Shown here one piece after another: positions 21,091 through 23,323 of a DNA stretch of 64,000 nucleotides. The notes beneath the pieces are model-generated. The model had not been told where the DNA came from, made no database searches, and worked only from the letters and a program-made list of their open reading frames with translations. Position 1 is the stretch's first letter, and the number at the start of each line of letters is the position of its first letter. Source of the DNA: an uncultured virus (IMG/VR IMGVR_UViG_3300009155_005562) (taxonomy: Duplodnaviria; Heunggongvirae; Uroviricota; Caudoviricetes); IMG/VR virus record IMGVR_UViG_3300009155_005562, one strand, 5' to 3'. Made by a program: the position numbers and the translations under genes.

Positions 21091-21873
21091 ATGACAAAAT
21101 ACAAATCCATTTTTATTTCTGATGTACATCTTGGAACTAAAGACAGCAGAGCTGATTTAGCTGCCAACTTTTTAAAGTATAATACCTGTGATAATTTATT
21201 TCTAGTGGGTGATATCATCGATGGCTGGAGAATTCAACAAAAAAAATGGCATTGGAAAAAAAGTCATTCCGCCTTTATTAGAAGAATCCTTAAACTAAGC
21301 AGAGATAACACCTCGATTACTTATGTTACTGGGAACCATGATGAGTTCTTAAGACCATATGTCGGTTCCTTCTCACTCGGTAACATTAACATAGTAAACT
21401 CTGCAGAATACAGATCAATAAACGGGGAGAAGTATTTAATAGTTCACGGAGATATGTTCGACGGAATAACTAGATTAGCTCCATGGCTATCATTCCTGGG
21501 CGATAAAGCTTATGATTGTGTTTTATGGCTCAACACTAAATTTAATTGGTGGCGTCATAAGTTAGGATTTGGATATTGGAGTTTATCTAGATTTTTAAAG
21601 CATAAAGTAAAAAAAGCAGTAGATTTTGTATTTAAATTTGAATTAAATGTAACTAGCTATGCTGCTAAAAGAAATTTTGACGGAATAATATGTGGTCATA
21701 TTCATACACCGGAAATTAAAACTATTAACGGTGTTACATATATGAATACCGGTGATTGGGTTGAGAGCTGCTCTGCGCTAGTTGAACACCATGATGGATT
21801 ATGGGAAATAGTTTATTGGACAGAGGCAAAAGATGAAATGGATTCTACTAATAATAGTAGTGCAAATCAATAA
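21091..21873 (+). CDS. Calcineurin-like metallophosphoesterase, UDP-2,3-diacylglucosamine hydrolase (LpxH)-like
   Basis: SDVHLG, GDIIDGW, GNHD, HGDMFD, GHIH, NTGDW. Confidence 0.85.
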   Translation: MTKYKSIFISDVHLGTKDSRADLAANFLKYNTCDNLFLVGDIIDGWRIQQKKWHWKKSHSAFIRRILKLSRDNTSITYVTGNHDEFLRPYVGSFSLGNINIVNSAEYRSINGEKYLIVHGDMFDGITRLAPWLSFLGDKAYDCVLWLNTKFNWWRHKLGFGYWSLSRFLKHKVKKAVDFVFKFELNVTSYAAKRNFDGIICGHIHTPEIKTINGVTYMNTGDWVESCSALVEHHDGLWEIVYWTEAKDEMDSTNNSSANQ

Positions 21874-22006: not shown

Positions 22007-22007
22007 T

Positions 22008-22446
22008 CGGTTACGCTACTCAGGTTGCAGTTCGCGTTCTAGACCGCTCCTACACTTATACACCCTTTCGTCCCTAGCTTTCGCTTCGCACCCAATACAC
22101 CGAAAGGTATGGGGCGGGTCCTTGACAGTAACGACTACTCTGGGTACGGCCTATAAGAAGGGCTCGCCATTTCGCTGTACGCGCTACTGTTATCGTCTCC
22201 TAAAGACTCATCAGAAGGACTGTTATAGGTGTCAAGCCATTCCTTACCGGGGAACCACTTGACCGGGAGGTTACTCCGACCACGTCTAATAACGCTTCGA
22301 CGATAACGCTTAAAGTATTCGATCTTTAAGAATCGCTAGTCATATGGTGGAACTAGGCACCTGAGAGTTCTGGACACTATTTGGCCAATAGTGCTGTGGC
22401 ATAACACAAACTCACACCTCTCCTAAACCCAAGGAGACACGGGGGT
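22008..22446 (-). ncRNA. Large structured non-coding RNA at the 3' end of the tRNA array
   Basis: No credible ORF, GC-richer than flanks, multiple hairpins, long-range helix CTCAGGT/ACCTGAG (22359-22365 with 22019-22025). Confidence 0.6.
22118..22229 (-). ncRNA. Hammerhead ribozyme-like fold (type I, one extra U in core)
   Basis: GUCCUU-CUGAUGA-GUCU(UUAGG)AGAC-GAUAA-CAGUAGCG...CGUUACUG-UC-AAGGAC; all three stems pair. Confidence 0.7.
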
Positions 22447-22447
22447 T

Positions 22448-22523
22448 TGGTAGGAGGTACCGGGTTCGAACCGATCACATTCACGGTGTAAGCGTGACGC
22501 TCTACCAACTGAGCTAACCTCCT
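22448..22523 (-). tRNA. tRNA-Val(UAC)
   Basis: Cloverleaf with CCA. Confidence 0.95.
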
Positions 22524-22929: not shown

Positions 22930-22967
22930 ATACGTACATTATACTGCTTATTGAATATAAGTCAACT

Positions 22968-23229: not shown

Positions 23230-23323
23230 TGGTCCTCCCGACAGGATTCGAACCTGTAACGTGCCCCCATCTAGAGCCAATGCCGGGTATAAGCCGGGTG
23301 TTTTACCATTAAACTACAGGAGG
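23230..23323 (-). tRNA. Atypical tRNA, UAU anticodon (Ile) with long variable arm
   Basis: 94 nt; normal D and T arms; ~23-nt extra arm; CCA encoded. Confidence 0.75.

Follow-up and report, generated by a model that had tools for sequence, protein, structure and literature searches.

The window analyzed here, a stretch of 64,000 nucleotides, comes from a T4-like lake phage; it contains genes for a family B DNA polymerase, gp44/gp62-type clamp-loader proteins and RegA, and DNA of the phage occurs in freshwater metagenomes. Fourteen tRNA genes are positioned on the minus strand. The upstream tRNA array ends with tRNA-Val(UAC) (22448..22523, minus strand), behind which approximately 440 nt lack an open reading frame (ORF). 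Read on the same strand as the tRNA gene, this spacer is composed of a noncoding module made up of a row of short hairpins (22230..22447), a type I hammerhead ribozyme at a distance of 218 nt from tRNA-Val (22118..22220), and a structured RNA of about 117 nt ending in ...GUAGCGUAACCGA (22007..22123), the predicted 3′ product of the ribozyme, which starts at the cut site. The downstream RNA is followed in the window by UUAUUUUU and then by a convergent metallophosphoesterase gene, with no tRNA and no same-strand ORF after it. This calcineurin-like metallophosphoesterase gene (21091-21873, plus strand) is placed on the opposite strand within the tRNA region; it is missing from two relatives, L002 and L003, whose homology to the window stops sharply at 22007. 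The tRNA-Ile(UAU) gene is oddly long, at 94 nt in the window (23230-23323) and 92 nt in L356 (1032-1123), a related viral contig, and in both phages it carries extra sequence compared with a 71-position tRNA model.

A strong match to a sigma-70-like promoter (TTGACT, 16 nt, TATAAT; 11/12) is found on the minus strand at 22938-22965, between the tRNA-Trp and tRNA-Met genes of the array, and is a possible start of the ribozyme-bearing transcript. Metatranscriptome contigs from two studies cover 22250-22486 and 22250-22437, bridging tRNA-Val and the upstream module, and are weak evidence of transcription, all of 22007-22249 lying outside them. Both contigs end at 22250; since a polymorphic site, 22249, is directly adjacent, this shared end is probably an assembly break.

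The first-pass annotation had proposed a hammerhead with three stems, a core and a predicted cut site, and each of these pieces was found where it had been placed. The assignment draws on reading of the sequence, the minimum free energy (MFE) fold, a type I descriptor and R1, our own covariance model built from the window's lineage, and the stem strands and C17 were located by script. Stem I (6 bp) is formed between GUCCUU (22220-22215) and AAGGAC (22123-22118), and the 5′ strand leads into the core segment CUGAUGA (C3-A9, 22214-22208), in which the free position N7 is 22210. Stem II (4-5 bp) follows as GUCU/AGAC (22207-22204/22198-22195) with the loop UUAGG in between, then the GA-U-AA element (22194-22190) comprising G12, A13, an inserted U13a (22192), A14 and A15.1. 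Stem III pairs ACAGUAGCG (22190-22182) with CGUUACUGU (22133-22125) in 9 bp, one of them G-U, and encloses a 48-nt extension (22134..22181) that is predicted to fold as an irregular hairpin and is invariant in a four-sequence alignment, giving a stem III span of 66 nt. All 13 core positions carry the hammerhead letters in order, with the GAAA string broken by the one U, which both the Rfam and the R1 alignments place as a one-base insertion between A13 and A14. The closing pairs are A-U at 1.1-2.1, G-C at 10.1-11.1 and A-U at 15.1-16.1. Because stem I is the open stem, the element is a type I hammerhead, and from hammerhead geometry the scissile bond is predicted to lie 3′ of C17 (22124) and 5′ of A1.1 (22123).

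The MFE structure of the isolated 112 nt consists of exactly the three hammerhead stems, with a folding energy no better than that of shuffled sequences (z = −0.86, and z = +0.25 when 136 nt are folded). Folds of longer contexts (136 nt and 441 nt) pair GUCCUU elsewhere, and stems I and II are not chosen. The 441-nt MFE structure joins the stem I 5′ strand (22215-22220) to AGGGAC (22070-22075) instead of AAGGAC; AGGGAC is positioned 48 nt downstream of the cut and is retained in L356, and in this folding model the AGGGAC/GUCCUU helix could be a competing pairing, a post-cleavage pairing or a coincidence.

The type I descriptor, in its canonical or +U form, found this site and no second one when both strands of the 64-kb window were scanned, and among simulated windows of the same dinucleotide composition 20 stem base pairs were reached in none of 400 and 18 bp in 2 of 400. 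A control set of 81 loci with the same 18-base core pattern was drawn from metagenomes and prokaryote genomes. Stems I and III together comprised at most 9 bp in 77 of the 81 core-pattern loci, with 15 bp in three family members and 16 bp in L146, a locus described below.

The Rfam hammerhead models, suggested earlier as a check, do not recover the element. At the gathering score no hammerhead was called; the type III model Hammerhead_3 gave 17 bits against a threshold of 48.5 (E = 2.5), and RF00163, at E≤10, matched neither of two whole phage records (G001 and G002). The canonical relative L356 is also undetected by Rfam at E≤0.1, and another relative, L310, scores 33.8 bits for Hammerhead_1, whose threshold is 34, so the missing score is read as a sensitivity limit of the models and not as a structural criterion. 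No HDV-like Rfam match was obtained in the element even at E≤10. The core insertion that had been singled out is indeed present, though it is not a new feature: U13a belongs to a published set of active natural hammerhead variants (Perreault et al. 2011, PMC3088659), and in the available portion of that paper the Solibacter usitatus ribozyme is drawn with G-A-U-A-A (Fig. 5 and Fig. S6) and listed in a 'phage, plasmid or transposon' region. The two ribozymes share the identical U13a insertion in the GAAA element and differ in that the S. usitatus example, as drawn there, is of type III, its ends lying at stem III, and is built from other stems.

Close relatives with an identity of about 95% across the 440 nt were found in three viral contigs (L002, L003 and L004) and two metagenome contigs (L138 and L155). 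Scans of viral contigs for the U13a core pattern turned up real hammerheads in the same three contigs only; the remaining 8 of the 11 viral-contig loci, as well as 47 of 47 loci, were coding sequence or chance matches, and a real hammerhead was present at 0 of 18 loci with the pattern in prokaryote genomes. Among the candidates set aside, the L121/L124/L209 and L114/L211 families have the core pattern only, showing coding-like variation and lacking a proper stem I, with an additional G after C17 in L124, and the descriptor matches L037, L040, L087 and L062 belong to the genes for DNA polymerase or RegA or to a ribosome-binding-site region. No match to the 611-nt region was found among GenBank phages by blastn with 'distant' settings, nothing was found at E≤10 when the 441-nt profile was run with nhmmer against 80 T4-like phage loci (reached via the RegA gene), and R1 had no match in five large related phage records.

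More distant homologues connect the element to canonical hammerheads. R1 produced full-length alignments with L356 (48.2 bits), L146 (33.2 bits) and L310 (32.7 bits), the best other score in the window being 14.6 bits, and in the R1 alignment the inserted U is deleted in L356 and L310. L356, which with L303 corresponds to viral contig IMGVR_UViG_3300023179_001150, has stem I (GUCCUU/AAGGAC) and stem II identical to those of the window and shares the stem III base ACAG/CUGU, whereas it has GAAA without the U, the loop II sequence UCAGG and a 28-nt stem III; its MFE structure is a textbook hammerhead. L310 has the same stem I as the window, and stem III is remodeled in both L310 and L356. Since these canonical homologues align to R1, the element is a hammerhead by descent, and the comparison indicates that U13a and the long stem III are states derived from a canonical ancestor.

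The remaining homologue, L146 (GCCUAA-CUGACGA-GUCC-UUAAU-GGAC-GAUAA-CCUAGUGG...CCACUAGGU-C-UUAGGC), is positioned between two same-strand ORFs, and its MFE structure is the hammerhead fold (z = −3.45). Compared with the window, both sides are changed and pairing is kept at 4 of 6 pairs in stem I and 6 of 9 pairs in stem III. By its sequence, L146 qualifies as a second, independent U13a type I hammerhead. The stems are thus maintained by compensatory change across L146, L310 and L356. PHROGs returned no family for the ORFs flanking L146, nor for an ORF in L002 that is described below.

The canonical form of the core pattern (GAAAC for GAUAAC) is very common in viral contigs, with at least 132 loci. 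Type I accounts for 99 of the 135 canonical core matches listed, mostly with a 6-bp stem I, and among the matches listed, stem III spans of 32-130 nt are also seen in canonical relatives and in 8 of the 99 type I relatives a tRNA lies on the same strand no more than about 400 nt away. Two of those eight, L303 and L292, display the order tRNA, 6 nt, ribozyme, about 110 nt, tRNA. In viral contig L297, a canonical type I hammerhead (395-471) fills the gap between two tRNA genes, running 4-5 nt into the predicted end of each. In L280, L232 and L314, the stem I 3′ strand AGACAG is able to refold with CUGUC just downstream into a 5′-terminal hairpin ahead of a ribosome-binding site and ORF, a modeled rearrangement that would be consistent with a part in forming the 5′ ends of mRNAs.

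No part of the spacer is as well conserved within the window's lineage as the ribozyme. The four-sequence alignment has 1 variable column in 112 in the ribozyme, compared with 19 in 218 in the 5′ part and 21 in 111 in the 3′ part. The sole variable ribozyme column, 22183, changes a stem III G-C pair to G-U, which is uninformative about pairing, and the lineage otherwise has almost no variation here. In contigs of a further DNA run, a U-to-C strain variant appears at 22210, which is N7, the free core position.

The structured RNA that begins at the cut site is conserved together with the ribozyme. Window positions 22123-22007 match L356 579-691 with an nhmmer E value of 4e-37, and RNAalifold predicts three hairpin domains with 30 pairs, 3 of which show compensatory changes. 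The L356 locus reads tRNA-Leu (438-514), AAAAAA, ribozyme (521-584, with C17 at 578), downstream RNA (579-691), UAU and tRNA-Asn (695), so that its ribozyme follows tRNA-Leu by 6 nt without the 218-nt upstream module, and its downstream RNA of about 113 nt also ends in ...GUAGCGUAACCGA, 3 nt ahead of tRNA-Asn. Because the ribozyme and the downstream RNA are joined in the same way in L356, the conserved unit is the ribozyme plus the downstream RNA. In L002, the conserved RNA is followed after 20 nt by the start of a 52-codon ORF that has a ribosome-binding site.

The first hairpin after the cut, located 0-1 nt past stem I, has the apex ACC-N4-GGUGUA. This hairpin follows 6 of 99 canonical ribozymes among the matches listed, compared with 88 of 20,000 windows expected by chance. 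Loci with the motif include L356, L292, L230, L271 and L310, and several such RNAs end in ...AACC(A/G). R2, a model of the whole downstream RNA, gives a weak match to L310 (E = 0.16) and leaves L292, L230 and L271 undetected, so the case for a wider downstream-RNA family consists of the hairpin motif. From the sequences, the hairpin may mark a wider family of small RNAs headed by hammerheads, or it may serve the ribozyme as a tertiary element.

We consider it fairly probable that the element is a genuine type I hammerhead of the phage/prophage type, of canonical ancestry, that frees the 5′ end of the downstream RNA, and the U13a form is probably active. In the proposed pathway, the ribozyme would be transcribed together with the minus-strand tRNA array, and once stems I-III had formed, the RNA would be cut between C22124 and A22123. 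The ribozyme would remain on the upstream product, which would carry a 2′,3′-cyclic phosphate, and the structured RNA of about 117 nt (22123-22007) would be released with a defined 5′-OH end. In L356, RNase P acting at tRNA-Asn, 3 nt further on, would set the 3′ end of the RNA, as expected from established tRNA processing; this step is limited to L356, because no tRNA follows the RNA in the window. Processing of the tRNA transcript or the RNA around it had been suggested for the ribozyme from the outset, and given its place in the tRNA operon, processing of surrounding RNA is most likely what it does. Clean trimming of a tRNA 3′ end is excluded by the type I geometry, since the cut falls near the ribozyme's own 3′ edge and leaves the ribozyme on the upstream product, so that the cleavage defines the 5′ end of the next RNA.

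A possibly switchable ribozyme had been put forward in the first-pass annotation. In a regulated version of this scheme, the upstream module, set directly before the ribozyme in this lineage, may together with U13a and the enlarged stem III have made a conditional hammerhead. CCUAUAA (22229-22223) would toggle between docking onto loop II through its CCUA (active) and, in the inactive state, pairing with UUAUAGG (22156-22150) of the stem III insert, and release of the ~117-nt RNA would then be timed or regulated. This would be a natural allosteric hammerhead, which to our knowledge has not been described. The two complementarities proposed do exist: CCUA at 22229-22226 forms a 4-bp match to UAGG of loop II, and UUAUAGG is the perfect complement of CCUAUAA. 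All three segments are also invariant in the lineage, and a stem I/loop II pseudoknot is present in about 40% of natural hammerheads according to the available part of one survey (PMC3088659). The 4-bp match is short, however, and among shuffles of the 112 nt some perfect helix of at least 7 bp arose in 55 of 300, and a complement of the first 7 nt in particular in 3 of 300. CCUAUAA is moreover the conserved tail of another module, which supplies it together with 22229-22221. This upstream module is about 95% conserved in L002, L003 and L004, contains one compensatory pair (22326/22313, A-U to G-C), and is absent beside the L356 hammerhead. The final ~60 nt of the module are similar to L356 1-57 (local score 38, against a mean of 23.7, sd of 4.7 and maximum of 42 for shuffles), where the contig start, before tRNA-Cys, has a sequence ending ...UGGCYUGACACCUAU, as in the module tail. 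Upstream of the L356 ribozyme, where AAAAAA is found and loop II is UCAGG, there is no CCUG or CCUA partner, and no loop II partner is found in L146. Since the pseudoknot and the 7-bp alternative both use the tail of a separate module that is absent beside the L356 ribozyme, neither pairing is supported, and we regard the switch as very unlikely. The ACC-N4-GGUGUA hairpin might, we infer, make the stem I/loop II contact instead of CCUA. A single ornate RNA of about 440 nt closed by a long 5′/3′ helix was also considered and dropped in favor of two modules end to end: its fold was not better than shuffles (z = −1.35), its long-range helices had four one-sided changes, three broken pairs and no compensatory pair, and in L356 the ribozyme unit occurs with no 5′ module before it.

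Three other explanations bear on whether the hammerhead cleaves and what the cleavage is for. The U insertion and enlarged stem III could have inactivated it, leaving a dead or crippled relic kept as a structural part, for instance as a protein or nuclease site; the scores below every Rfam threshold, the departure of the core from the strict consensus and the failure of the 136-nt and 441-nt folds to choose stems I and II are compatible with such a loss. We judge it unlikely, because U13a is among the active natural variants in the accessible text of PMC3088659 and recurs independently in L146 with intact stems, while in the window's lineage the ribozyme varies at a single column, retains all core letters and has its sole core polymorphism on N7. 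If the ribozyme does cleave, its purpose may instead be to separate or stabilize transcripts, the cut uncoupling the tRNA precursor from what follows (an mRNA in some relatives) and giving a 5′-OH end. The L002 ORF with its ribosome-binding site close behind the conserved RNA would agree with this purpose, as would the type I hammerheads located about 30-60 nt ahead of ORFs in L146, L280, L232 and L314 and the phage hammerheads placed in polycistronic transcripts in the available sections of Perreault et al. (2011, PMC3088659). This explanation is quite unlikely for the element studied here, where no same-strand ORF comes after the RNA in the window and where the ~115-nt RNA shows conservation and compensatory changes of its own and, in L356, has a tRNA as its boundary. 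As for a chance resemblance within a conserved spacer, very many windows were screened at the first stage and the simulations did occasionally reach 18 stem base pairs, but they never reached 20, and the clear homology to canonical hammerheads through L356 and L310 all but refutes this idea, which we hold to be extremely improbable.

The ribozyme itself is ordinary, in that hammerheads of type I are frequent in phages and the extra U, a rare core variant, has been described before, and it represents a new example of a known ribozyme class and not a new kind of RNA switch. In common with the phage/prophage type I hammerheads (RF00163, clan CL00010), so far as these are described in the available part of PMC3088659, it has the core, three stems with a 6-bp open stem I, the G10.1-C11.1 and A15.1-U16.1 pairs, C17 and a place between genes of a phage operon, and it is unlike them in U13a, the 66-nt stem III span and the sub-threshold Rfam score. 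Theta ribozymes, which are minimal HDV-like ribozymes with a nested double pseudoknot beside phage tRNAs, have been postulated to process tRNA transcripts (Kienbeck et al. 2024, PMC10879173), and they resemble the window element as self-cleaving ribozymes in a phage tRNA region, cleavage being predicted in the window. According to the available text of that paper, their fold is different, and cleavage at the ribozyme's own 5′ edge allows them to remove the 3′ trailer of a tRNA. In the window hammerhead the predicted cut falls close to the 3′ edge of the ribozyme, and the element is separated from the tRNA by 218 nt, which places it outside the theta type. In the literature searched, no paper was found on natural hammerheads inside phage tRNA arrays. 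The tRNA cluster of phage T4 reportedly yields small stable non-tRNA RNAs, species 1 and 2, that are processed from the tRNA operon; we know of no ribozyme there, and the likeness, which is one of description only, is that of non-tRNA small RNAs from a T4-type tRNA operon.

For the hammerhead family, these loci show that the Rfam hammerhead models miss real members that have U13a or a long stem III. For the phage, the value lies in the context, a hammerhead fused to a conserved structured RNA of about 115 nt within phage tRNA arrays, and to go by the sequences compared here, its likeliest job would be to make the 5′ end of this small conserved phage RNA. In L356, where the RNA lies between the predicted ribozyme cut and the 5′ end of a tRNA, the arrangement suggests that a non-tRNA RNA may be matured by a ribozyme at its 5′ end and by RNase P at its 3′ end.
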